DNA of 64,000 nucleotides from a virus. Taxonomy: Duplodnaviria; Caudoviricetes. The stretch is taken from IMG/VR virus record IMGVR_UViG_3300035390_000014, positions 1-64,000 of that record. One strand, given 5' to 3'. Below are positions 128 through 15,594 of this stretch, one piece after another. The position numbers were made by a program, and so were the translations under genes. How positions within the stretch are numbered: the stretch's first letter is position 1; the number at the start of each line of letters is the position of its first letter. Under the pieces are notes generated by a model. It was not told the DNA's origin. It was given only the letters and a program-made list of their open reading frames with translations, and searched no databases.

Positions 128-3100
128 TTATCTTTTCAAACCTAATGCTGTAAGGTTTGCATTTAATAATTTAACAGACTCAGGAACAATTGAATCGACA
201 TGATCATCTTCTTCAAGTCTTCCTAAATCTGATTCCAATTGTTCTCTAATAAACTTGTTCTTAAGATCAATACAATCAGATTTAGTTGTTAGAAATTCTC
301 TTAAATTAAATTTGGCATTATGTCCAATCAATGCTGCTGTTTCCATTTCCCCACATCTTTGACCACCTTTATTTTTACGACCAGCTAAAGGTTGCAAAGT
401 CTTTCTTGCATATGATCCAATACCTCTTGCCGCTAACCTTGTCTCAGATATATGAACCATTTTAAAGAAATATCCATATCCACATGTTACTGAATTAACT
501 GGATAACTATTTGACTGAGGATCAAACACATGGTATGTAAATTGTGTATTTGTATAAGCTAATGCTTGTTTGGTCTTTTCCATATTAACTGATTCAAATG
601 GAGGTTGAATTATTGACATATTGTCTATCCATTCATCATCAATAATCAAGGGCATTTGCTCTTCAAACTGCTGATGATACCACCCAATTTCAGTATTATC
701 AATTATTTTTATATAACCAAGAACATAATCTTTCACAAGTATCTGAATTTGATCTTGAGATAATTCATGATTTATTACTGATTGATCTTCACCATGAATT
801 ATATGTTTCATTTGCTTCTTCAAATCAAATAAAGACATACCCATATGATATTCAAACAACTGACCTACATTCATTCGACCAATGGTTCCCAAAGGATTGA
901 CAATAATATCAGCATGTCTCCCATCAGGTAACATTGGCATTTTTTCATGAGGAATAATAGTAGAGATTACACCTTTGTTACCATGTCTGTTCCCAACTTT
1001 ATCCCCAATCTGAATTGGTCTAAAGAATATACCAAACATTTCAACTCTAATTCCTAATACCTCTTCACCTTTCTTTTTAAATTTTCCTGTATTACTGAAT
1101 AGATCAAGATTATTTGCCTTGATAAAAGGTTTAACCTGATCCTTCTCCAGATTTTCTTCGATGATAACTTTAATTTTTAATTCTTCATCCTGCTGTGAGT
1201 TGATAACACTTTCAACCCAATCATTATACTGAGGTATATCCACACACCATTGATTAACATATAGATTAACTTCTGTTATAATAACATCCTGTTTTGATAG
1301 AAGTTTTCTTTCTTCTTTAAATATATCAAAGAAGTCCATTTGATTATTCGGAAATTCTTTTAAAATTGCGTATGGAGTACCTTTAGCAATTCTATCTCCG
1401 ATTTTTGGTAAAGGTTTATAATCAGCATTTTTATCCAAAGATAATAACACTTTATTCATAGGGATATCAAAAGACATATCCTCAAAATGAACTGATGTAA
1501 ACAATCCTTCCTTCTGGACGCGGTCTGAGATGATAATTCCATCCTCATAATTGTATCCATAATAAACCATTACACAAGTTAAAAGGTTTTTGCCAATGTT
1601 TATACTTCCATCTTTACAAAAATTACTTTCTGCTAAGATTTCACCAGCTTTAAATTTATCACCTTGCTTCACATATATATTAAATACATCAAGATTTGAT
1701 ATATAAATTTTTCTATATGTGATATTAAATATTTCAATTGTCTTATCATCATATAAAGCTATTATATAATTACTATCAAGATGTATAACCTTTCCTGATT
1801 TTTTAGCAATTTTTACAAACTGAGTATACTTTGTATATAAATTTTCACAACCTGATTTAATCATAGGTTTGTCAAAATTTTGTAACATAATTGCCTGTCT
1901 CATTTGAGACGACGCCATTTGCAACCTAGTCTGATCATCATGTTCAAGGAATGGAACCATAGATACAGGAATTGAAATTGGTTGCTTTTCAAGAAATTCA
2001 TCAGTAAATCTTAAATTTTCATCCAGTGGAACATTTGGAATAAGATTTTGAAGAACTCCGCAGTTATCTCTATCTGGTGTATCAACAGGACATATTCTAC
2101 CAAACATACTTGGCATAATATCTCTTAAATGCTCAGGAACATTCTGTCTATTAAACCCACCAGGTCCAACCAAGCTTGTTCTGCTTAACTTAGTTGCTTC
2201 ATCAATAGGATTAATAGCAAAATCAAACTGAACAATATCTGATACATTACATTCGGATAATATTTGAGTTGAATTAACATTGAATTTTGGTTGTCTTGCT
2301 GTTCTATTGGACATACACATATCAAATACTGCTTTAGATATCTTTGCTAATACTACATATTCAAGACATCTAATTCTTTTATTCTTCAGATCAGTATCAT
2401 CAAGATCACCACCATTCAATGTATAAACAATTTCATCAATAATATTATCGGTTTGAAAGAATATTGTTGAAATAGGATCAACTTTCAATATTAAGTCAAG
2501 GGAATATATAATATCTTCACCCTTAACTCTAGCATTAAATTTTGAATAATTTCTTCCTATTTCTTTTATAATATCATCTTGAGTTAACCCTCTTGATTCA
2601 TCATAAAAACATTTTAAATCATAAATCAACTTTTCATACAAAGTTGATTCCGGTGTCATAATTGGCGCATCTACCATATCAGATAAACCAAATTTTTCAT
2701 TCATAACCTCAATCCCATAATAACCAAACATAATTAGAAATAATGGAACTTTTCTTCCTAAGATGCTAATATAAACATAAGGAGATTCTTTCTGAGGAAA
2801 TATCATAAGAGTTGCAACATTAGTTCTAATCTTGATACTCTTTCCTCTTGTAACAACAGGGATATCAAACAACTGAAATAGAGGTATTTTCTTCCTTCCA
2901 TTTATAACTATGTAATTGTCATCTACTAATGCCGGAATTTGCATAGATAAATCTATCTTTGCAGTTCCTTTTTGAAACCTGATTATCAAATTCTTTTTTA
3001 AGGTTTTACTTATCTCTCCGTTAGAAAATCTGGGTTCTTTTAATCTAAATTCCATCAATTCAAACCCTAATTCTTCTGCTGGGATCAGTATCTTTCTTAC

Positions 3101-3190
3101 GTTCTCCAAAAGAGCTGCATACTCTTGCTGTCGAATATTAAAGATATGATTATTTCCGCCAACTTTATATATCGGATTTTCTATAGCCAA
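128..3190 (-). CDS. rpoB: Multisubunit RNA polymerase beta-like subunit (RNAP-1, probably non-virion), unsplit
   Basis: Motifs GRICPVDTPDRDNCG, HDDQTRLQMASSQMRQA, GYNYEDGIIIS, GDKVGNRHGNKGVIS, GGQRCGEME. TTG start with an AAGGAG RBS. Confidence 0.95.
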   Translation of the reverse strand: MAIENPIYKVGGNNHIFNIRQQEYAALLENVRKILIPAEELGFELMEFRLKEPRFSNGEISKTLKKNLIIRFQKGTAKIDLSMQIPALVDDNYIVINGRKKIPLFQLFDIPVVTRGKSIKIRTNVATLMIFPQKESPYVYISILGRKVPLFLIMFGYYGIEVMNEKFGLSDMVDAPIMTPESTLYEKLIYDLKCFYDESRGLTQDDIIKEIGRNYSKFNARVKGEDIIYSLDLILKVDPISTIFFQTDNIIDEIVYTLNGGDLDDTDLKNKRIRCLEYVVLAKISKAVFDMCMSNRTARQPKFNVNSTQILSECNVSDIVQFDFAINPIDEATKLSRTSLVGPGGFNRQNVPEHLRDIMPSMFGRICPVDTPDRDNCGVLQNLIPNVPLDENLRFTDEFLEKQPISIPVSMVPFLEHDDQTRLQMASSQMRQAIMLQNFDKPMIKSGCENLYTKYTQFVKIAKKSGKVIHLDSNYIIALYDDKTIEIFNITYRKIYISNLDVFNIYVKQGDKFKAGEILAESNFCKDGSINIGKNLLTCVMVYYGYNYEDGIIISDRVQKEGLFTSVHFEDMSFDIPMNKVLLSLDKNADYKPLPKIGDRIAKGTPYAILKEFPNNQMDFFDIFKEERKLLSKQDVIITEVNLYVNQWCVDIPQYNDWVESVINSQQDEELKIKVIIEENLEKDQVKPFIKANNLDLFSNTGKFKKKGEEVLGIRVEMFGIFFRPIQIGDKVGNRHGNKGVISTIIPHEKMPMLPDGRHADIIVNPLGTIGRMNVGQLFEYHMGMSLFDLKKQMKHIIHGEDQSVINHELSQDQIQILVKDYVLGYIKIIDNTEIGWYHQQFEEQMPLIIDDEWIDNMSIIQPPFESVNMEKTKQALAYTNTQFTYHVFDPQSNSYPVNSVTCGYGYFFKMVHISETRLAARGIGSYARKTLQPLAGRKNKGGQRCGEMETAALIGHNAKFNLREFLTTKSDCIDLKNKFIREQLESDLGRLEEDDHVDSIVPESVKLLNANLTALGLKR

Positions 3191-3205: not shown

Positions 3206-5920
3206 TTAAATTTCTTCGCCGCATAAGATTTTATCCATAACTCCATGATATAAACCAGAATCAAGGACACCACGTATGATATGTTTCTTTGGATTTGAAA
3301 ATGCTAAACCCATCAACCAGCTTTCATTTGAGGGCACAGTTTGAACAGATAGGTATTTAGGAACTACATTTTCTCGACCCTCAACCAATCTCCATTTTTT
3401 ATTATTATACCACATCAATTGAGATACAACACATTCAAAATGTACATGATGAATTGTTCTACTAAGGTTATAACAAGTGTACAACTTGGCAACCAATTCT
3501 TCTGGTTTAGTTCCTTTAGGAAATTTATGCAAAAGTTTAGACACTGTTGATAAATCAGCAACAATATCATGCTGTTTCATATCCTCACCTTCACTTTCCT
3601 TATCCAAAACAGCAACACCAGATGTATGAAATGTACGTAAAACCAACTGAGTATTACATTCTCCAAGACTCTGAGCTGCAATAACTCCAACAAACTCAGA
3701 ATCCAACATCTCATACAATTCCCCATAACATTTGGTGCATATTTTAGGGTTCTTACAATATATTGGACTTCTAACTTCAACAATCTTTCCTACATAACCA
3801 AGATAGTTATACTCGGTCATTTTAATCAGAGTACCATCTTCTTTAAACCATTTTCCAATTAACATCTTTGCTTTCTTTTCATCATCAACAAATACAGAAA
3901 GTAAATCAGTTGTTCCACAATCCTCAGTGTCTTTATCAATTTGAAGATTAGCACAAGTGAATATTAATTTTCTTGAAAGGTATCCAGATGTTCCTGTGTT
4001 CAAAGCAACATCAAGTAACCCCTTTCTAGAACCATTGGTAGAATCAAAGAACTCTCTTGGTGTTAACCCATTGATAAAACTATGTTTAATGGGTCTTTCA
4101 ATAATCTCACCTCTAAAGTTTGAAATAAAACCTCTGGTTAAAACTATCTGTCTTACCTGATCCCAACTCCCTCTAGCACCAGATTCTATCATGTATGCGT
4201 ATTTAAAATGATCTCTAAGATACTGAGTTGTTTCTTCCTTAGATACCATATCAAGTTGTTCTCTAATATCATCGCCTTCATACAATGAATCTCTTTTCTC
4301 AAGTGACCCTTCAATGAAACAATCATCTAGTGCAAGAGTTGCCCCAAATAATGTTGAATATTTAAATCCAAGAAATTTAATTTTATCGAGAACAGCAGCA
4401 GTAATTTCATTTGAATATCTATTATTAACATCAGTTAAATAGTAATTAATTTCTTTACCACCAACTTCTTCATCAATTATATGATAGTCAGATGGAAAAC
4501 AATCATTCAATAACTTTCTATCAGCTTTAATTGTTGTCCCTTTATATTCAACATCATACTGTAGATCAGGAAATATTTTATGAGTAACAGCATAGATACC
4601 CAATATAACATCCTGACTTGGTGTAGTTGACAAACTTCCATTAGAAGGATTGGTAAGATTTCTTATAACCAACAATCTATCCAACACTTCTTGCTTTGCT
4701 TCTTCACTGATTGGAACATAAACAGCCATCTGATCCCCATCAAAATCTGCATTAAATGGAGGGCATGACAATGGATGTAGTTTAATAACTTTTTCTAAAG
4801 TAACTTTGGTTTTATATCCCAAAAGACTTAATCTATGTAATGAAGGCTGTCTGTTTAAAATACATACCTCATTTACAGCAATCTCTTCACATATATTAAA
4901 AAGAATTGGGTTGCCAACTTCAATACAATTATCAATAAAATCAATTGAATCATTAATTTTCTTAAATCTTCCAATCTCAATAATTTTCTTTGCGATTTTC
5001 AATTTAAATAATTCAAGAAACATCAAATAAGGTAATGCACAATATTCCATTTCTAATGTAGGATCAGGAACAATTACTGCTCTACCAGAAAAATCAATTC
5101 GTTTACCTAAAATATTACCACGAATCAATCCTTCTTTTTTAGACATTTTCTCAAGAATATAAGCATACAACTCTTGAATATCTTTTTGAAGCTGTCTGTA
5201 ATAATTGTAATATAAATTTCTATCAACTCTTATATCACATGGAGTTTCTCTCATTGCTTCTTTTTTAGTAAGTATTTGAGTATAGTATCTATTAATTTTA
5301 TCCGAAGATACTTGTCCTTTCTTACTAACTTTCTTTGATGCAGGCCTTAAATCAGGAGGTAATACAATAACCTGACCGATTATTAATTGATCTATATTTT
5401 CTTTAACAACTTCCCAAGAAGTATTTCCTATACCCAAACCATAATCAGCTAAATCTTCAATTAATATTTTAATTGCTTCAGTACCGACTAAAGCATTTCT
5501 ATCAATATTTTCAGGGTCTTGTTTTTCAACCCTCCATGATTCTTCTTCATCATCATATACTAAAATACTGTTTTCATCTTTCATCAATTGATCCAATGCA
5601 GTCTTTACTTGACGACCACCAAGATCAATTACAAGATCATAAAACAATGGGTTCACAACCGGGATTGGTAGAATAATTTTAGCAAATCTTTTTCTTCTCT
5701 CATTGCTATTAACAACATCAACTCCACAATCTGCACAGGTTCCACCAGAACCTGATATACCCCAATAGGTTCCACATTGACAAGTATAATTCTTTTCTGG
5801 ACCAAATATCTGCTCAGAAAATAATCCTGTCGCATGAGGCAACTTCTTGTCGTAGATCTTAGTTGTTGTGATTTCTTTTAAGTCTTCACAAAACTCGTCA
5901 AAATTTAATAATGTAGGCAT
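3206..5920 (-). CDS. rpoC: Multisubunit RNA polymerase beta'-like subunit (RNAP-1), unsplit
   Basis: Catalytic NADFDGDQMAV, N-terminal Zn finger (CQCG...CADCG), LGKRIDFSGRAVI, RQPSLHR, bridge helix TGTSGYLSRKL, trigger loop QLVLRTFHTSG. Confidence 0.95.
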   Translation of the reverse strand: MPTLLNFDEFCEDLKEITTTKIYDKKLPHATGLFSEQIFGPEKNYTCQCGTYWGISGSGGTCADCGVDVVNSNERRKRFAKIILPIPVVNPLFYDLVIDLGGRQVKTALDQLMKDENSILVYDDEEESWRVEKQDPENIDRNALVGTEAIKILIEDLADYGLGIGNTSWEVVKENIDQLIIGQVIVLPPDLRPASKKVSKKGQVSSDKINRYYTQILTKKEAMRETPCDIRVDRNLYYNYYRQLQKDIQELYAYILEKMSKKEGLIRGNILGKRIDFSGRAVIVPDPTLEMEYCALPYLMFLELFKLKIAKKIIEIGRFKKINDSIDFIDNCIEVGNPILFNICEEIAVNEVCILNRQPSLHRLSLLGYKTKVTLEKVIKLHPLSCPPFNADFDGDQMAVYVPISEEAKQEVLDRLLVIRNLTNPSNGSLSTTPSQDVILGIYAVTHKIFPDLQYDVEYKGTTIKADRKLLNDCFPSDYHIIDEEVGGKEINYYLTDVNNRYSNEITAAVLDKIKFLGFKYSTLFGATLALDDCFIEGSLEKRDSLYEGDDIREQLDMVSKEETTQYLRDHFKYAYMIESGARGSWDQVRQIVLTRGFISNFRGEIIERPIKHSFINGLTPREFFDSTNGSRKGLLDVALNTGTSGYLSRKLIFTCANLQIDKDTEDCGTTDLLSVFVDDEKKAKMLIGKWFKEDGTLIKMTEYNYLGYVGKIVEVRSPIYCKNPKICTKCYGELYEMLDSEFVGVIAAQSLGECNTQLVLRTFHTSGVAVLDKESEGEDMKQHDIVADLSTVSKLLHKFPKGTKPEELVAKLYTCYNLSRTIHHVHFECVVSQLMWYNNKKWRLVEGRENVVPKYLSVQTVPSNESWLMGLAFSNPKKHIIRGVLDSGLYHGVMDKILCGEEI

Positions 5921-6291: not shown

Positions 6292-6761
6292 TATATAATC
6301 TCCCTTGGTAATGGTGGCGATGTTTTTAAATGTTCACGTAATGGATAATGATGTGGATCATCCAATCCCCATTGAGATATCATATATTTTATATACTTAT
6401 TTGAATAAAATTTATAATTTGGCACACTGGAAGGATCATTCTGGTATTTTTCCATTAACTTATTGCTTATCAATTTTGTTCCTATAATACTATTTCCAGT
6501 ACAAAACCTAGAAAATTTAGGTGGGTTATTTATATCTATATTTTTTTCTCCTTCCCACCCCCAAGCATTTGGATGAAAACTATCTGCAATTATTATATCT
6601 TCTATAATATTATCCAATAAATTATTTACTATAACATAATACCTTTTTACATTATAGCTTGGATGATAATAAGTTATATCATAAGAGGTATGTTTAAATA
6701 TAATATTTTTTGGTATCACACCACCTTTTGATACATAATATTTTTTACCTTCTATCATCAC
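6291..6761 (-). CDS. Putative small E2/UBC-like (ubiquitin-conjugating-fold) protein
   Basis: FHPNA followed about 20 aa later by RFCTG resembles the UBC HPN...C signature with an inserted loop. Adjacent to E1, Ubl and JAB genes. Confidence 0.5.
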   Translation of the reverse strand: MMIEGKKYYVSKGGVIPKNIIFKHTSYDITYYHPSYNVKRYYVIVNNLLDNIIEDIIIADSFHPNAWGWEGEKNIDINNPPKFSRFCTGNSIIGTKLISNKLMEKYQNDPSSVPNYKFYSNKYIKYMISQWGLDDPHHYPLREHLKTSPPLPREII

Positions 6762-6769
6762 CCACTCCT

Positions 6770-7657
6770 TTATGCTGCTCCAGTATCAGGCAGTAATTCT
6801 AAATAAACTTGACTTGGATTTTCATCATTAACTTTAATTGTATAATATTCATTTAAAGGAACAATAGTACATACAATTTCAGATAATATTTTTACAGCAT
6901 TATTATAATGATCAATTTCATTTTTCTTTATGCATTGAATATTTCCTCCTACACATCCTTCTTGTCCAACAATAACTATCAAATCCTTAGTTTTATTAAG
7001 TTTAGTAATTTGAGGCAATGTTTCATGAAGATTTCTAATCTTATTATCACCTTTACAATATTCAAGAACCATATCAGGTTTATTATCAAATAATTCAATA
7101 GCTTTATTGGCTTGTTTCTTAACCAAATCAATTTCAGCTTGAAAAACTAATTGTCTTTCCATAAAATCAGTTAATATTTTTTTATCAATATATTGAGAAG
7201 CAATTGAAGATGCTATGGTTAATTCTGATAATGATAAATTATGTGAATATCTACCTGTTTGTTTAAATACAACTTTATGATATTTTTCACAGTCAATGAC
7301 TAATGTTTTATATGAAATATAAAATCTAACATCAATTTCACCACCACGACTGCAAATTTCATCTCTACAATCAACAATCAATTCACTTTCAGGAAGCCAA
7401 ATCTTTCCTTCTATATATTCAATAGGAAAGATTTTAGTTTTAATTAATGAGTTATTGTTATATATAATACGACTCATTGCCTCAACTTTAAACTTACCGA
7501 TATCATCTCTCTTATAAATAGAATTGCCAATATTTTTTGTTTCTATTATATCAGGGTCAATTAATATTAAATTTTCAATTCCTTTCATTTTAGAAATGTT
7601 ATCAGCAAAGAATCCTCCGAGTGATCCCAAACCAATTATTACGATGCTTTTATACAT
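6770..7657 (-). CDS. ThiF/MoeB/E1-like adenylation-fold protein, degenerate, with C-terminal extension
   Basis: IIGLGSLGG, LILIDPDIIETKNIGNS (the usual NxxRQ is replaced), DIGKFKVEAM, LIVDCRD. Confidence 0.8.
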   Translation of the reverse strand: MYKSIVIIGLGSLGGFFADNISKMKGIENLILIDPDIIETKNIGNSIYKRDDIGKFKVEAMSRIIYNNNSLIKTKIFPIEYIEGKIWLPESELIVDCRDEICSRGGEIDVRFYISYKTLVIDCEKYHKVVFKQTGRYSHNLSLSELTIASSIASQYIDKKILTDFMERQLVFQAEIDLVKKQANKAIELFDNKPDMVLEYCKGDNKIRNLHETLPQITKLNKTKDLIVIVGQEGCVGGNIQCIKKNEIDHYNNAVKILSEIVCTIVPLNEYYTIKVNDENPSQVYLELLPDTGAA

Positions 7658-7711
7658 TTCATTTTTAATCCTTTATGTTATAATAGTTTGTTTCTTAAAT
7701 CAATAATTACT

Positions 7712-8131
7712 TTATTCATTTATATATTCATTTATTTTTTGTAATGTATAATGCAACGAATGAATCTGTTTCATTATAGTTTGAGCTTTACCATAAATAG
7801 TTGGATCAGTTTCTTTGATAAGATTATGCATCAAATGAGAAAGTTTATGAGGTTTTAATTTATTATAAAGTTTATTCATCCCTGCAGTTAATTCACATGC
7901 AACAGTCTCATATTCAATAACATTTGGCGTATTTTGAATAAGTCTATGTGTCAAGAATAATAAATCATTAATATTATCCTCTTCCAAATGTGTAGAAGCT
8001 AAATATAAATCATTTTCATGTTTGTCTTGTAATTCTTTCAAATCAATTTTTATTAATTTAACTGGATTGCCCTCAATTTCAGCGATATAATAATCTTTTT
8101 CATCTTTTAATATTTTAATTTTCTGTTCCAT
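7712..8131 (-). CDS. Hypothetical protein
   Basis: 139-aa ORF with an AAGGAG RBS. Confidence 0.6.
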   Translation of the reverse strand: MEQKIKILKDEKDYYIAEIEGNPVKLIKIDLKELQDKHENDLYLASTHLEEDNINDLLFLTHRLIQNTPNVIEYETVACELTAGMNKLYNKLKPHKLSHLMHNLIKETDPTIYGKAQTIMKQIHSLHYTLQKINEYINE

Positions 8132-8144
8132 TATATCTCCTTTT

Positions 8145-8181
8145 AAATAAGGGGTAAGAATTAATCCCTACCCCTTATTTT
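8145..8181 (-). terminator. Intrinsic terminator-like hairpin downstream of the Ubl gene
   Basis: Minus strand reads GGGGTAGGGA-TTAA-TTCTTACCCC-TTATTT: a 10-bp stem with G-U wobbles plus a U-rich tail. Confidence 0.75.
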
Positions 8182-8196
8182 AATCAAATACTAATA

Positions 8197-8748
8197 CTAT
8201 CCTTTGGAACCAGCAGGTTTGATGAACTCAAGAACATCGCCTTCTTTAAGAACATAAGAAGAATCGATCTTGTTTCCAGAAACCTGACCCTCAGCAAGTC
8301 TATCAATATTCAGAACTTCCTTGAGGAATTCCTGAACTGCTCCAACTGTTTTACCCTGAACAGGAAAGTCAGCAGAGTTGGCACCACAAGAAACCTGAAT
8401 GGTTGTTGTGGTTTTGTCGCCTTTCTTTGCAGAAGGTTTAGTTAGAACACTTGACATTTTAAACTGAGCTGCAGTTACAGGTGCAGGAGGTTTAGAAGCC
8501 ACAGTTTGAGCAAGTTTCTGAGTATGGCTCATCCCAGGTTTAGTTGCAACAGGTTTAGTTGCAACAGGTTTAGACACAGATGCAGGACCATCAGCAGTAG
8601 CGGCAGAAGCAGCAAGAATTGCTTTAATTGTAATGTCTTTGGTCTTTTTGGAAAAACCAACAATTTTACGTGCTCTAACGATAGTTCTCAGTTCAGCAAC
8701 GGTCATGTCATTCAGAGTGTCATAAGTTTCGATTGTAGAATTAGTCAT
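8197..8748 (-). CDS. Ubiquitin-like (beta-grasp) protein with an N-terminal HEH/Rho-N-like domain and a low-complexity linker
   Basis: The C-terminal ~70 aa (TIQVSCGANSADFPVQGKTVGAVQEFLKEVLNI...YVLKEGDVLEFIKPAGSKG) fit a ThiS/MoaD/Ubl pattern ending in Gly. The N-terminal LNDMTVAELRTIVRARKIVGFSKKTKDITIKAIL resembles Rho-N/HEH/SAP motifs. Confidence 0.75.
   Translation of the reverse strand: MTNSTIETYDTLNDMTVAELRTIVRARKIVGFSKKTKDITIKAILAASAATADGPASVSKPVATKPVATKPGMSHTQKLAQTVASKPPAPVTAAQFKMSSVLTKPSAKKGDKTTTTIQVSCGANSADFPVQGKTVGAVQEFLKEVLNIDRLAEGQVSGNKIDSSYVLKEGDVLEFIKPAGSKG
8536..8574. repeat. 15-bp tandem repeat (aggtttagttgcaac, about 2.6 copies) encoding the KPVAT linker
   Basis: Visible directly; encodes KPVATKPVATKP in the Ubl linker. 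Confidence 0.85.
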
Positions 8749-8780
8749 TTTTAGTTCTCCTAATGTTTAATAAATTTAAT

Positions 8781-9458
8781 TTAGTTTTTAGAATTTCTTG
8801 TTTTCGCTAATGTAGCCATTGAAGTGATATCGAAATATACTTCGCCAAACCTTGTCACATCTTTTCCTTGATGAATTGCATAGAACATCCAACACATTAT
8901 TGTTGCAACAGTTAAATTTGTGAACAATAGCTGTGGCGCTGATTCAGATAGTTCTTCGCAACTCATATCTTCCGGAGATCGATCTTCTGGATATTCAATC
9001 TCTGGATGATATTCATCTAATGACGCTGTTACATTCTTCCCACCCTCCCTTTTATAAATCTGAGCGTTACCATCAGTGTATTCATTACCACCACTGATAA
9101 CAGTTATATCATTAAGTGTTGAACAATAATCAGAAATAACTTTTCTGGAAACATGATTGTCAACACATATAAAAACGATGGAATTTTCTGATATTAATGA
9201 TTTTATATTATCTTCATTAACAAATTCATTATAATCTTTAAAACCAACCTTTGAAAATTTGTGTTTAAGTTCTGTGCATTTAACAGTAGCCTTATCACCT
9301 AATCTTGCAAAAGTTTGTCTTTCACTATTTCGTGCTTCATAAAAATCTCCATCAACCAAACTAACAGATGCATTAATGTCTGAGTAGTTTAAATATCTGG
9401 ACAAATTATCACACAAAATAGATCCAACTCCACCTAACCCAATAATAACAATATTCAC
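8781..9458 (-). CDS. ThiF-family E1 (Ubl-activating) enzyme, PRTRC/Ub-system type
   Basis: IIGLGGVGS, LVDGDFYEARNSERQ, FICVDNHVSR, ISGGNE, and a C-terminal MSCEELSESAPQLLFTN carrying a candidate catalytic Cys. No CxxC Zn pairs. Confidence 0.88.
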   Translation of the reverse strand: MNIVIIGLGGVGSILCDNLSRYLNYSDINASVSLVDGDFYEARNSERQTFARLGDKATVKCTELKHKFSKVGFKDYNEFVNEDNIKSLISENSIVFICVDNHVSRKVISDYCSTLNDITVISGGNEYTDGNAQIYKREGGKNVTASLDEYHPEIEYPEDRSPEDMSCEELSESAPQLLFTNLTVATIMCWMFYAIHQGKDVTRFGEVYFDITSMATLAKTRNSKN

Positions 9459-13090: not shown

Positions 13091-13450
13091 TTATTCTCCT
13101 TTTAAGAATTGCATCCTTTCAACAAACTCTTTTAATATTTTCTTAGGATTATCATGTTTAACAACCCAAACCTTAGCTCTTTTAGGAGTTGATGTATTAA
13201 TATTCGCTAAACAATTCCAATGTGAAATAATATATTTATTTTGAGCTTCTCGTTCAATACAAATATAATTTTCATATTTTTTATTATTAGTGACAATAGG
13301 AAGAGACAAGAATATATTTGACCCAACAGGTCCTTCATAATCAATTGTATCGCCTAATTCTTCTTTTTCTATATGATCACAAAGAATCCTTAATTTTTCA
13401 TCTAATTCACTCTTCTTCCATGTTTCAAGAAGTTCATCAATAATTGTCAT
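13091..13450 (-). CDS. Hypothetical protein
   Basis: 119-aa ORF with RBS, operonic. Confidence 0.6.
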   Translation of the reverse strand: MTIIDELLETWKKSELDEKLRILCDHIEKEELGDTIDYEGPVGSNIFLSLPIVTNNKKYENYICIEREAQNKYIISHWNCLANINTSTPKRAKVWVVKHDNPKKILKEFVERMQFLKGE

Positions 13451-13461
13451 TTAATCTCCTT

Positions 13462-13773
13462 TTATTTTTTAATTCTAAATCTTACTCGATTAGGAGTTTC
13501 AACCCATTCACTTCTTTGAAATGGTACAGTTCTCCAATCTTTTTTATCCAAATCAAAAACATGAACCATACCCTGTTTCTGCACCAAAGAAAAGATTTTA
13601 CCCATATTTACATCTTTTGGTCTTTTTCCCTCAGGTATTTTTGAAAAATCCAGAGTGCATCTCATTGTTCTTTCAGTTCCATCAAGTTTTCTAAACCTAA
13701 TAGTAACTTCTTCCTCTGCTTTTATCTTTTGATAAAACTCTATTGCGTTTTGTAATACATTGTCATCAGCCAT
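13462..13773 (-). CDS. WYL_2 / SH3-fold phage protein
   Basis: VTIRFRKLDGTERTMRCTL...VFDLDKKDWRT pattern typical of phage WYL_2 proteins. Confidence 0.75.
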   Translation of the reverse strand: MADDNVLQNAIEFYQKIKAEEEVTIRFRKLDGTERTMRCTLDFSKIPEGKRPKDVNMGKIFSLVQKQGMVHVFDLDKKDWRTVPFQRSEWVETPNRVRFRIKK

Positions 13774-13782
13774 ATTAACTCC

Positions 13783-13956
13783 TTATAGATATCTAAAATC
13801 TTGGTTTTGTTTGGATTTAAGACTTTGAATTGCAACTAAGCCTTCATTCTTTTTAGAAACTTTAAAATGTTTTATAACTTTTTGTTTTGCATCCCAAAGA
13901 CTATCTGCTTCAACAACTGTTTTCTCTCTGTTAAAAAATCCTTCAAATTTGGCCAT
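13783..13956 (-). CDS. Small hypothetical protein (57 aa; below the ORF-track cutoff)
   Basis: GGAGG RBS. Hand translation MAKFEGFFNREKTVVEADSLWDAKQKVIKHFKVSKKNEGLVAIQSLKSKQNQDFRYL; fills the gap exactly. Confidence 0.7.
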   Translation of the reverse strand: MAKFEGFFNREKTVVEADSLWDAKQKVIKHFKVSKKNEGLVAIQSLKSKQNQDFRYL

Positions 13957-13979
13957 TTCTTACCTCCGTATGAATTAAG

Positions 13980-14561
13980 TTATCCCCAACATGTAATGCC
14001 AAACATTCTTCTATTTCTTTCTTTTATATTAGAAATAAATACATCTTTGTCTTTATCATGAAATGTATGTTTGTGCAGATACGTATGCTCAGTTGATAAC
14101 ATTAATCCTAAATTTTCTTTTCGATCATCCATATCATTCATATTAATGTGATGAACACACCATATTAAATTCCGCAACTTTGTAATATTGTATAGAAATT
14201 CTTGTTCCTCTTTAAATAAGATTGGATTTTGATTCTTATCAATTGTGCCTAAAATATCTATAAAAGGTGTTAATGGAAATTTAAAATCAAATTGTGAATA
14301 ATAAGAAAAGAAAAATGCATGATGTTTACCAATATTGCAAGACTTTTCTATATTAAATAATTTTTCAATTGTTGAAGTTATTCCTGTTCTTGATTTACGA
14401 CCTTTTGTTACAGCACTATTATAAATTATTGGACATTTATCACATTGTCCACCACTCTCACGAACATTTCTATAATCGCACATCATACAACCACCATCTT
14501 TTATAGAATCATGTTCTGTTAATAATTTCCATAATCCAGGAAAATCAATACTATTTGTCAT
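13980..14561 (-). CDS. HNH endonuclease-like protein with an N-terminal Cys cluster
   Basis: VHHINMNDMDDRKENLGLMLSTEHTYLH (HNH_3-like); N-terminal CMMC...CDKC. Confidence 0.7.
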   Translation of the reverse strand: MTNSIDFPGLWKLLTEHDSIKDGGCMMCDYRNVRESGGQCDKCPIIYNSAVTKGRKSRTGITSTIEKLFNIEKSCNIGKHHAFFFSYYSQFDFKFPLTPFIDILGTIDKNQNPILFKEEQEFLYNITKLRNLIWCVHHINMNDMDDRKENLGLMLSTEHTYLHKHTFHDKDKDVFISNIKERNRRMFGITCWG

Positions 14562-15594
14562 TATCTCGTCTCTCCTTATGAATTAAATTATCAACAACAT
14601 CTCCATCTTCTGATATCATTCGACTCATAAGCATACAGGTCCAACAACATCCTTTGCAATAATTCTTTTTATCAATTCTAATCATTTCTTTATATGTAGG
14701 ATGTAATCCTTCACCAAGAAAACAATCATATGCCTTCATAACTGGAGTCATAATTCCACGAATACGAAGGCAAAGTCTTACACTACCATCAGCATCAATT
14801 GTCATATTATGAACATTATCTTCTAACCCACAATCAAGATTTGCTGGTAATATATCCCAAATTTTCATCAACAATGTATCAGACATATGAACATCAAGCT
14901 TATCATCAATAATCTTTTGAAATATATCTTTAACTGTCTTATTCTTTTTAACTAAAAGATTCTCATCCTCAACATTTGAAAAGTCATAATAATTATTTTT
15001 TTTAATATCAACTGTTGTGATATCACTGTTTATACCCATGTCTGTTAACATTTTAACGAGGTTATACAAATGATATATATTGGTATTATCAACTGTGATT
15101 TCCGCTACTAAATCATTGATTTTACCCTTATACTTTTGCAACCTTTCAATACCAGCTACACATTTTTTATATCTGTCATCATCAGTTAATGATTTATCAT
15201 CCAATATCAATGGATCAACTGATGATGTTAGACCTTGAATATACTCAGTATCTTCCATCAACTTATCAATCATTGGTTGAACTGCATCTGAATTATTTGT
15301 AATAATTGTATAATGAATATCTTCTTTATTACAATAATTTATAATATCAGCAAGATCCTTTCTAAGCATTGGCTCGCCTCCATAAAAAAGCATAAAAGCA
15401 TCTGGATTATGTTTTTTAATTCTACCCAATGTTGCAATAACATATTCGGTTGACATTTCTTGTTTATGATAATGACTCATATTAGGATAACTTGATGGTT
15501 TCCCTTCATAGTCTTTCACAATAGCACAATAGGAACATTTCAAATTACACTGCCTTGTCAGTAACCATGAAATTATTTGTATCTTATTTTTCAT
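14551..15594 (-). CDS. Radical SAM enzyme with a C-terminal Cys cluster (SPASM/twitch-like)
   Basis: CNLKCSYC (CxxxCxxC), FYGGEPMLR, TIITN, TIDADGSVRLC, CKGCCWTC. Confidence 0.9.
   Translation of the reverse strand: MKNKIQIISWLLTRQCNLKCSYCAIVKDYEGKPSSYPNMSHYHKQEMSTEYVIATLGRIKKHNPDAFMLFYGGEPMLRKDLADIINYCNKEDIHYTIITNNSDAVQPMIDKLMEDTEYIQGLTSSVDPLILDDKSLTDDDRYKKCVAGIERLQKYKGKINDLVAEITVDNTNIYHLYNLVKMLTDMGINSDITTVDIKKNNYYDFSNVEDENLLVKKNKTVKDIFQKIIDDKLDVHMSDTLLMKIWDILPANLDCGLEDNVHNMTIDADGSVRLCLRIRGIMTPVMKAYDCFLGEGLHPTYKEMIRIDKKNYCKGCCWTCMLMSRMISEDGDVVDNLIHKERRDNDK

Follow-up and report, generated by a model that had tools for sequence, protein, structure and literature searches.

Three bacterial ubiquitination-like pathways, namely Cap2, Bil and Bub, have been characterised; two of them have been shown to be anti-phage and the same has been suggested for the third (PMC11601603). 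Cap2, the enzyme of the Type II cyclic oligonucleotide-based antiphage signalling system (CBASS), adenylates a whole CD-NTase and conjugates it via its extreme C-terminus, and a JAB peptidase reverses the conjugation (bioRxiv 10.1101/2022.03.31.486616). The E1 enzymes of Bub are devoid of the catalytic cysteine, and the only invariant residue of their crossover loop, a tyrosine, forms an oxyester with the ubiquitin-like protein (Ubl), Ubl~Tyr (PMC11601596). Known bacterial E1s are homodimers or, in the case of BilD, a single-chain pseudo-dimer without a ubiquitin-fold domain (UFD) (PMC10557695). Here we compare these systems with a locus located in the first 64 kb (positions 1 to 64,000, hereafter the window) of the IMG/VR virus record IMGVR_UViG_3300035390_000014 (Duplodnaviria; Caudoviricetes), which is 202,719 bp in length and rated about 65% complete. 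Two E1-like ThiF proteins of 225 and 295 amino acids (aa), named here ThiF225 and ThiF295, are encoded at this locus, and the ThiF295 gene is directly followed by the gene of a 156-aa protein, u156. We tentatively read the locus as two adjacent ubiquitin-like modules, giving this reading a little less than an even chance: module A would resemble the operon type 6d (PRTRC), while module B would consist of ThiF295, an E1 fused to its own Ubl-like domain, together with the E2-like u156.

The two ThiF genes sit within a core cassette of an uncultured clade of jumbo phages, directly upstream of the RNA polymerase (RNAP) genes. The window has a GC content of about 0.29 and its minus strand holds all long open reading frames (ORFs). 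The order of transcription is E2L855 (an E2-like protein of 855 aa), JAB, ThiF225, Ubl183 (a stand-alone modifier of 183 aa), u139 (a variable ORF), ThiF295 and u156, with the RNAP genes downstream. Homologues of ThiF295 number 44 in the metagenome protein set (28-80% identity), and its gene is found in 71 loci of IMG/VR and 4 others, that is about 75 related loci on contigs of up to 312 kb. Gene order was scored in these loci only where the flanking sequence was long enough and is constant: radical-SAM, WYL_2-like, an ORF of about 120 aa, E2L855, JAB, ThiF225, Ubl, an optional variable ORF, ThiF295, u156, small ORFs and RNAP beta'. Since this order is kept in about 75 loci, the genes form a core cassette and not an accessory island. 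ThiF225 and ThiF295 are never apart in the sampled loci and therefore their co-occurrence is uninformative on whether both cooperate. A tblastn search of 50,697 phage records gave no match to ThiF295 or u156, and only weak matches to ThiF225 in Bacillus jumbo phages, where the single context inspected was uninformative. The RNAP beta' and beta proteins themselves show only about 28% identity to any record of the phage collection.

ThiF295 scores 49.6 bits against Pfam ThiF (PF00899; cut-off 28.1) and thus passes the superfamily threshold, with a profile match that covers residues 4-104 only. Structural comparison of residues 1-182 of its model with VIA-align identifies the E1 domain of Cap2 as the best match (Z 19.3, root-mean-square deviation 2.8 A, 169 residues aligned), followed by MccB (Z 17.8) and, at Z 16-17, by MoeB, ThiF, UBA3, APPBP1, SAE1, SAE2, Atg7, UBA5 and BubCD. 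Models of E1-E2 (Cap2) proteins are the best PADLOC matches (4.7e-15), and MccB, PaaA, AclA, MoeB and ThiF are also among the best sequence and structure matches. Residues 1-182 hold the G-loop (G9/G11/G14), D34, D36, N42, K57, D96-C97-R98-D99, R104 and the loop residue Tyr137 (7247-7249). Among 65 distinct ThiF295 sequences, G9, G11, G14, D34, D36, N42, K57, D96, D99 and R104 are conserved at 90% or more and align with the ATP/Mg motifs of MoeB; R98 is likewise invariant. The family has therefore kept, invariant or nearly so, the Asp for the ribose, the Lys for the phosphate, the Asp that binds Mg and the Arg after it (D...K...D-x-x-D...R), and most N-domain residues conserved at 90% or more fall at canonical positions of the nucleotide-site motifs. 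The original prediction had labelled ThiF295 as degenerate. From its sequence conservation the protein does not look dead, as the invariant residues match canonical ATP/Mg motifs, and the pattern appears to fit purifying selection on the ATP/Mg site. Such a pattern would be unexpected in a purely structural subunit.

ThiF295 departs from the canonical E1 at two places. It reads N42-I-G-N-S46 where MoeB has N-L-Q-R-Q, and the canonical Arg-Gln of NxxRQ is absent. The family motif is N-[LIV]-[KR]-N-S-[IV]-Y, of which the NIGNS of the window is an outlier; in 35 of the 53 members scored, the residue just ahead of the canonical Arg position is Lys or Arg, and 4 of the 53 have an Arg at the canonical position itself. 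No conserved catalytic Cys is present in the crossover loop in the 65 sequences, the sole conserved Cys being C97 in the common D-C-x-D motif. The loop 123-142, located between the strand hairpin 110-122 and the helix 143-158, matches the position of the crossover loop which bears C167 in ThiF225, and it carries K125, G135 and the invariant Y137 in place of Cys. The NIGNS stretch, the missing equivalent of the Ser-Cys motif and a tail reading YLELLPDTGAA had all been noted in the original prediction and are confirmed here, with an extension of about 110 aa. With Tyr137 located past the second hairpin strand, the loop of ThiF295 may parallel that of BubCD and BubBD, the E1s of Bub (6E), which also lack the Cys and have a Tyr as the only invariant residue of their crossover loop; BubCD matches ThiF295 in sequence (1.4e-5) and in fold (Z 16.1). 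By this analogy, Tyr137 may be the counterpart of Y370 of BubCD. In contrast to u156, which has an invariant Cys with a His-Pro-Asn (HPN) motif, the E2 of Bub uses a Ser, and the Ubl of Bub ends in Gly and is either a separate protein or a pre-cleaved one.

The extension of ThiF295 follows the E1 fold and consists of a helical linker, a beta-beta-alpha-beta-beta domain of about 68 aa and a tail of 5 residues. In the full-length AlphaFold2 (AF2) model, strands are formed by residues 226-231, 237-243, 272-277 and 284-290, and a helix by residues 251-264 between the second and third strands. The topology is unchanged when the C-terminal domain is folded alone, with a predicted local distance difference test score (pLDDT) of 80. 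On the basis of these models, we assign the domain as a predicted beta-grasp with moderate confidence. In a VIA comparison, Ubl, PB1, SUMO, UBX or RBD domains fill more than half of the 50 best rows, all at Z of 4.0 or lower, which is weak by the calibration of the tool; the neighbours at Z 3-4 (model residues 27-100) include the Ubl domains of USP7/USP11, PB1, SUMO1, Smt3, UBX, Get5, TBCB and Raf RBD. In the ESM Atlas, the closest match is to a TGS domain, which is a beta-grasp as well (TM 0.54/0.60).

A profile of the C-terminal domain searched against 1.84 billion representatives was found only at the C-terminus of 280-320-aa proteins, in fragments thereof and in one spurious Calx-beta protein. 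The short forms which appeared to stand alone were rejected: P0174 is cut by the contig end, P0151 is a frameshift in a contig of 1.2x coverage and L079 is a 598-nt contig of doubtful assembly. At one further locus (L080:726-1377), a u156 homologue comes after a beta-grasp that stands alone and ends in ETGGS; the gene upstream of them is unrelated, and an E1 domain is absent there. This single contig of 1,965 nt may be a natural split form or a chimeric assembly and was given no weight.

Of all features the tail stands out most: the ThiF295 family proteins all stop exactly 2 residues past the tail Gly in the 65 sequences. Counted from the C-terminus, G(-3) is conserved in 64 of them, A(-1) and L(-8) in 63 each, T(-4) in 57 and E(-5) in 55. 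The last five residues have the lowest confidence of the model (pLDDT 65). MoaD ends in ...PPVTGG and the tail of ThiF295 resembles it. Free ends conserved to this degree are typically those which are taken up by the active site of an E1, and a simple E2-docking domain would not explain it. It had been suggested earlier that JAB could trim the tail after the Gly. The resemblance to a Ubl end is favoured, the tail being near-invariant in the family; the trimming is doubtful, since the Gly is always trailed by two residues, whereas Ubl precursors have extensions of variable length, and the last Ala is kept in 63 of 65 sequences, which speaks against a disposable propeptide. As judged from this pattern, the Ala carboxylate may itself be the reactive end; the G-[AGS]-A terminus would be compatible either with Ala as the mature end or with cleavage at a constrained site. 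An LPxTG-like sortase signal was also considered. It was rejected because the motif is followed by neither a hydrophobic segment nor a charged tail, and because about one third of the members have Glu, Ala or Phe in place of the Pro.

The neighbouring u156 is probably an E2 enzyme, as predicted from its sequence motif. Its start lies 8 nt past the ThiF295 stop, and a Shine-Dalgarno-like AGGAG is present at the ThiF295 stop codon. Iterated searches with hidden Markov models identified the u156 family in 72 loci and it lies directly after ThiF295 in 72/72, with the stop and start mostly overlapping or abutting. The family is highly divergent (mean column identity 18%), yet P17, H63, N65 and C87 never vary and P64 is kept in at least 90% of the members (38 aligned, 72 found). 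Its consensus is HPNxDPxTxxFC, and an HPN-x(8-22)-C pattern is invariant, with a spacing of 8 in most members and 21 in the window copy. u156 therefore bears the H-P-N...Cys motif by which UBC-type E2 enzymes are recognised. When its profile was searched against all PDB sequences, only two matches had an E-value below 10, and both are eukaryotic E2s aligned on HPN...C: HPNVNFKTGEIC and HPNVDPHTGQPC. Profile-profile comparison of u156 with the N-terminus of E2L855 gave a probability of 1.3%, the HP...C segments being the aligned part.

Covariation among the cassette genes was calculated from the pairwise distances of ten proteins, of the cassette and as controls, across 32 non-identical loci, after removal of the RNAP beta' (rpoC) component and with the use of ranks against saturation. 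The partial rank covariation of ThiF295 with u156 is 0.64, at the top of the matrix. ThiF295 and ThiF225 covary at 0.31, which exceeds shuffles (permutation p 0.002); other cassette pairs are at 0.23-0.39 and neighbouring control genes at 0.01-0.26. The value for E2L855 and u156 is only 0.11, though E2L855 evolves as fast as u156. This pattern fits two modules, with E2L855, JAB, ThiF225 and Ubl183 in one and ThiF295 and u156 in the other.

Module A contains the canonical member of the ThiF pair. ThiF225 scores 68.4 bits against Pfam ThiF (cut-off 28.1) and contains N44-x-x-R47-Q48 at 9315-9329 and S166-C167, with C167 at 8958-8960. In 57 distinct homologues G7/G9/G10/G12, D36, N44, R47, Q48, K56, D100, N101, R105 and C167 are invariant, the Cys of the crossover loop being present in 57/57; the retention of the Arg-Gln motif and of a candidate catalytic Cys, as proposed earlier for this protein, is thereby borne out. 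Ubl183 has 63 homologues, some of them recorded with PF07498 or PF02037, and the family ends in K-G in 55/55 sequences, a few having one or two extra residues. Its Rho_N/SAP head is of a nucleic-acid-binding-like type. JAB carries the invariant residues E84, H131, H133, S141 and D144. E2L855 keeps N178 and C186 invariant within its weak Prok-E2_D match, and a search of its profile against PDB gave nothing useful. Coordinates of all these features are presented in Table 1.

Table 1. Features of the cassette and of the adjoining RNAP genes in the window.
Feature	Position	Strand	Basis or details
ThiF295, E1-like adenylation domain and C-terminal beta-grasp-like domain, 295 aa	6770..7657, stop included	minus	ORF; PF00899 3.7e-13; AF2 model pLDDT 89
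ThiF295 residues 1-182, complete E1 adenylation fold	7112..7657	minus	VIA-align, conservation, MoeB alignment
ThiF295 residues 183-222, helical linker (helices 178-191 and 210-221; conserved D195, I217, N221)	6992..7111	minus	DSSP of model; conservation
ThiF295 residues 223-290, beta-beta-alpha-beta-beta, read as beta-grasp (Ubl or UFD)	6788..6991	minus	Domain model pLDDT 80
ThiF295 C-terminal tail, E-L-[LI]-P-E-T-G-[AGS]-A, here ELLPDTGAA	6773..6799	minus	65 distinct sequences
u156, small UBC/E2-like protein, 156 aa	6291..6761	minus	Invariant H63-P64-N65 (6567-6575), C87 (6501-6503)
ThiF225, canonical minimal E1, 225 aa	8781..9458	minus	PF00899 6.8e-19; PRTRC_ThiF 6.5e-9, below cut-off
Ubl183, stand-alone modifier, 183 aa: Rho_N/SAP-like head, low-complexity linker, MoaD/ThiS-like beta-grasp ending ...KPAGxKG	8197..8748	minus	Weak ThiS, TGS, SAP matches
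JAB/JAMM metallopeptidase with N-terminal extra domain, 349 aa	9471..10520	minus	Prok-JAB 0.0018, PRTRC_A 3.9e-6, both below cut-off
E2L855, 855 aa: N-terminal Prok-E2_D-like region and C-terminal part of about 550 aa	10521..13088	minus	Prok-E2_D 0.0015 over 170-230, below cut-off
u139, variable unassigned ORF between Ubl and ThiF295	7712..8131	minus	No family match; BLAST finds 21 loci only
16-bp perfect hairpin just past the Ubl stop codon, terminator/attenuator-like	8145..8180	minus	Fold -21.1 kcal/mol, z -3.5
RNA polymerase beta', bacterial-type	3206-5920	minus	
RNA polymerase beta, bacterial-type	128-3190	minus	

Like the operon type 6d described by Iyer, Burroughs and Aravind in 2006 (equivalent to PRTRC, TIGR03735-03742), module A combines a small E1 and a Ubl that ends in Gly with a JAB extended by an N-terminal domain and an E2-like protein in which a Cys is conserved (PMC1779556). 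Its most specific NCBIfam matches are PRTRC_ThiF (35.5 bits against a cut-off of 144.75) and PRTRC_A (26.6 against 101.8), and its Pfam match is Prok-E2_D (18.7 against 25), all far below the cut-offs. Judged from these sequence comparisons, module A appears 6d-like by its parts list and is not a PRTRC/6d member by score. It is unlike the 6d type in its E2 of 855 aa, in the Rho_N/SAP head of its Ubl, in being a core phage module beside RNAP genes and in being accompanied by a second E1-like/E2-like pair.

Modules A and B are separated as gene sets by the hairpin, which was missed by a pattern scan and was seen in the sequence; it looks like a terminator or attenuator permitting an excess of Ubl over the products of the downstream genes. 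The slot between Ubl and ThiF295 is variable: it holds an ORF of 139 aa in the window, unrelated ORFs of 138-215 aa elsewhere, or nothing. In related phages (L005-L077) the length of JAB ranges between 297 and 622 aa around an invariant catalytic core, and its variable C-terminal region may set the choice of substrate. Beyond the E2-like part of about 290 aa, E2L855 has more stretches that reach a conservation of at least 90%, among them G600-D601, N714 and G756-D757, and these C-terminal blocks may be a built-in substrate-binding region. Ahead of E2L855, positions 13091-15594 of the window contain the radical-SAM gene, the WYL_2-like gene of 103 aa and the ORF of about 120 aa. As the same three genes precede E2L855 in nearly all related loci, the conserved block exceeds the Ubl genes.

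Module B is most similar to the Cap2/Cap3 proteins of Type II CBASS, with which it shares the best structural match (Z 19.3), the best PADLOC match, a JAB in the locus and an E1 and E2 acting, as we propose for ThiF295, on the C-terminus of a whole protein and not on a free Ubl (bioRxiv 10.1101/2022.03.31.486616). However, Cap2 is an E2-E1 fusion, whereas the window has separate genes in the order E1 then E2, and the activated tail would be on the E1 itself by way of the fused beta-grasp. In further contrast to Type II CBASS, ThiF295 has no conserved E1 Cys, the genes are encoded by a phage, and no CD-NTase or effector is present. The locus shares with MoeB-MoaD and ThiF-ThiS the E1 fold and the order of its motifs, a predicted beta-grasp with a flexible tail of small residues and, as for MoeB, an E1 that would need no Cys. 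It differs from them in that the partner is fused to the E1 and ends in G-x-A, and in that an E2-like gene and JAB are present while sulfur-transfer genes are absent. In the full-text literature consulted, which covered few subscription journals and neither of the surveys of E1-like and E2-like families from 2009 and 2011, we found no description of the cassette, nor of any E1 bearing a fused beta-grasp whose conserved end looks reactive.

From the gene content, conservation, folds and covariation observed here, we infer the chemical steps, the dimer state and the targets of the two modules. In module A, ThiF225 would adenylate the terminal Gly of Ubl183, load it on Cys167 and hand it to Cys186 of E2L855, and JAB would reverse the conjugation. 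In module B, the E1 domain of ThiF295 would dimerise like other small E1s and bind ATP. It may then adenylate the C-terminal carboxylate of the fused beta-grasp, be it that of the same chain or that of its partner. From there the acyl group of the tail would pass to Cys87 of u156, possibly via Tyr137 as in the Bub E1s, and the whole ThiF295 would end up attached to a target, much as Cap2 attaches the whole CD-NTase. Cap2 and MccB, the closest folds to residues 1-182, both adenylate the C-terminus of a protein or peptide and were for this reason counted in favour of an E1 that activates its own tail.

Several observations weigh against this reading of module B. The Arg-Gln is gone and the window copy is without even the neighbouring basic residue, making adenylation by ThiF295 itself uncertain on the sequence. 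The tail ends in G-[AGS]-A at a fixed length and not in the classical GG, and we know of no modifier that is permanently fused to its own E1. Fold prediction of the last 100 aa or so, suggested in the original prediction, returned a beta-grasp-like topology, but the similarity to known beta-grasp domains is weak in the model comparisons: besides the low Z-scores, Foldseek against PDB gave nothing below E 0.19, a search of PDB sequences with the profile of the domain yielded nothing but a chance Rab match and no solved Ubl, and profile-profile comparison with the beta-grasp of Ubl183 gave a probability of 0.1%. For u156, the E-values of the two PDB matches are 0.44 and 0.64 and not significant alone. 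No Pfam match was found in any of the 38 members, and the window copy matches no Pfam, PHROG, NCBIfam or PADLOC family; its ESM Atlas model has a pLDDT of 0.33 and is unusable. The covariation values are based on pairwise distances and are a soft measure, as distance pairs are not independent. Modules A and B never separate in the loci examined, so that their independence is tentative.

A heterodimeric E1 is the most eukaryote-like reading of the ThiF pair. ThiF295 would then be the inactive-type subunit of the active ThiF225, with its beta-grasp serving either as a UFD which recruits u156 or as a fused Ubl presented to the ThiF225 site and Cys167. Eukaryotic inactive E1 subunits keep remnants of the nucleotide-site motifs; the Arg-Gln and the loop Cys are absent from ThiF295, a canonical and a divergent ThiF always co-occur, and the fold of ThiF295 matches both active subunits and inactive ones (APPBP1 Z 17.1, SAE1 Z 16.2). 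The pair resembles NAE1-UBA3, SAE1-UBA2 and BilD (inactive and active adenylation domains, IAD-AAD, in one chain) in its active and divergent adenylation domains, in a predicted C-terminal beta-grasp comparable to the UFD and in the nearby putative HPN-type E2; in eukaryotic E1s the UFD is a C-terminal beta-grasp which binds the E2, and here the E2-like gene adjoins that of ThiF295 (PMC10557695). However, the eukaryotic UFD sits on the active subunit and not on the divergent one, the conservation of the tail is not UFD-like and a UFD role leaves its fixed-length invariant T-G-x-A end unexplained. In contrast to eukaryotic heterodimers, ThiF295 also keeps its ATP/Mg motifs, and conserved residues at these positions are unexpected in a purely structural subunit. 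ThiF225 and ThiF295 both begin at the first Rossmann strand, without an N-terminal helix; in MoeB and eukaryotic E1s this helix gives an arginine finger in trans, and neither ThiF has a segment which could provide it. The covariation of the two proteins is above shuffles, but it is no higher than that of other cassette pairs and is near that of controls (0.22-0.26), against 0.64 for ThiF295 with u156. The 6d operons run on a single E1, and therefore ThiF225 plausibly needs no second subunit (PMC1779556). We consider the heterodimer unlikely. It was one of two options raised in the original prediction, and it is left without specific support by the ATP/Mg motifs, the missing arginine-finger helix and the covariation of 0.31; the other option, a second Ubl served by ThiF295, is favoured by the tail, the beta-grasp model and the linked u156.

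ThiF295 could also be an adenylase that acts outside protein tagging, as a fused MoeB/MoaD-like sulfur carrier with a thiocarboxylate on its tail, or as a peptide or nucleotide modifier similar to MccB or PaaA, with u156 as an accessory protein. MccB, PaaA, AclA, MoeB and ThiF are all among its closest matches, MoeB too does without a conserved E1 Cys, the tail is similar to the ends of sulfur carriers, and the radical-SAM gene nearby can be counted as a nucleotide-modification gene. Against this, the cassette has no rhodanese, cysteine desulfurase or sulfur-acceptor enzyme, the strictly linked u156 bears the E2-type HPN...Cys, and JAB and a second set of E1, E2 and Ubl are present in the same cassette, which makes a role outside tagging improbable to us. 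Still less probable, in our estimate, is a decoy or regulator without catalysis of its own, the tail of which would be a pseudo-substrate for ThiF225, for JAB or for a host E1 or Cap2-type defence enzyme, for example as a counter-defence sponge. Phages do counter CBASS-type systems, the nearest relatives of ThiF295 are the E1 domains of CBASS Cap2, and the tail was kept while the Arg-Gln was lost. A decoy, however, accounts neither for the invariant ATP-site residues nor for a linked E2-like u156 with an invariant Cys, and ThiF295 is a core gene of the whole clade beside the RNAP genes and not a variable accessory gene.

Machinery of this type is here found on the phage side, as a conserved core module beside the RNA polymerase genes and in two versions. 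It is conceivable, though rather unlikely at present, that ThiF295 and u156 form a self-contained unit in which the modifier is built into its own E1 and is stapled onto a target, possibly the transcription machinery of the phage or host, or else that ThiF225 and ThiF295 are the first viral two-gene E1 heterodimer with a UFD-like domain for E2 recruitment; either would be an E1 architecture undescribed in bacteria, phages and eukaryotes. Module B is compact, and its 295-aa and 156-aa proteins together with ATP are small enough for a direct test. Should the fused E1/beta-grasp indeed activate its own tail for an E2 of canonical appearance, it would represent a novel design of conjugation system.

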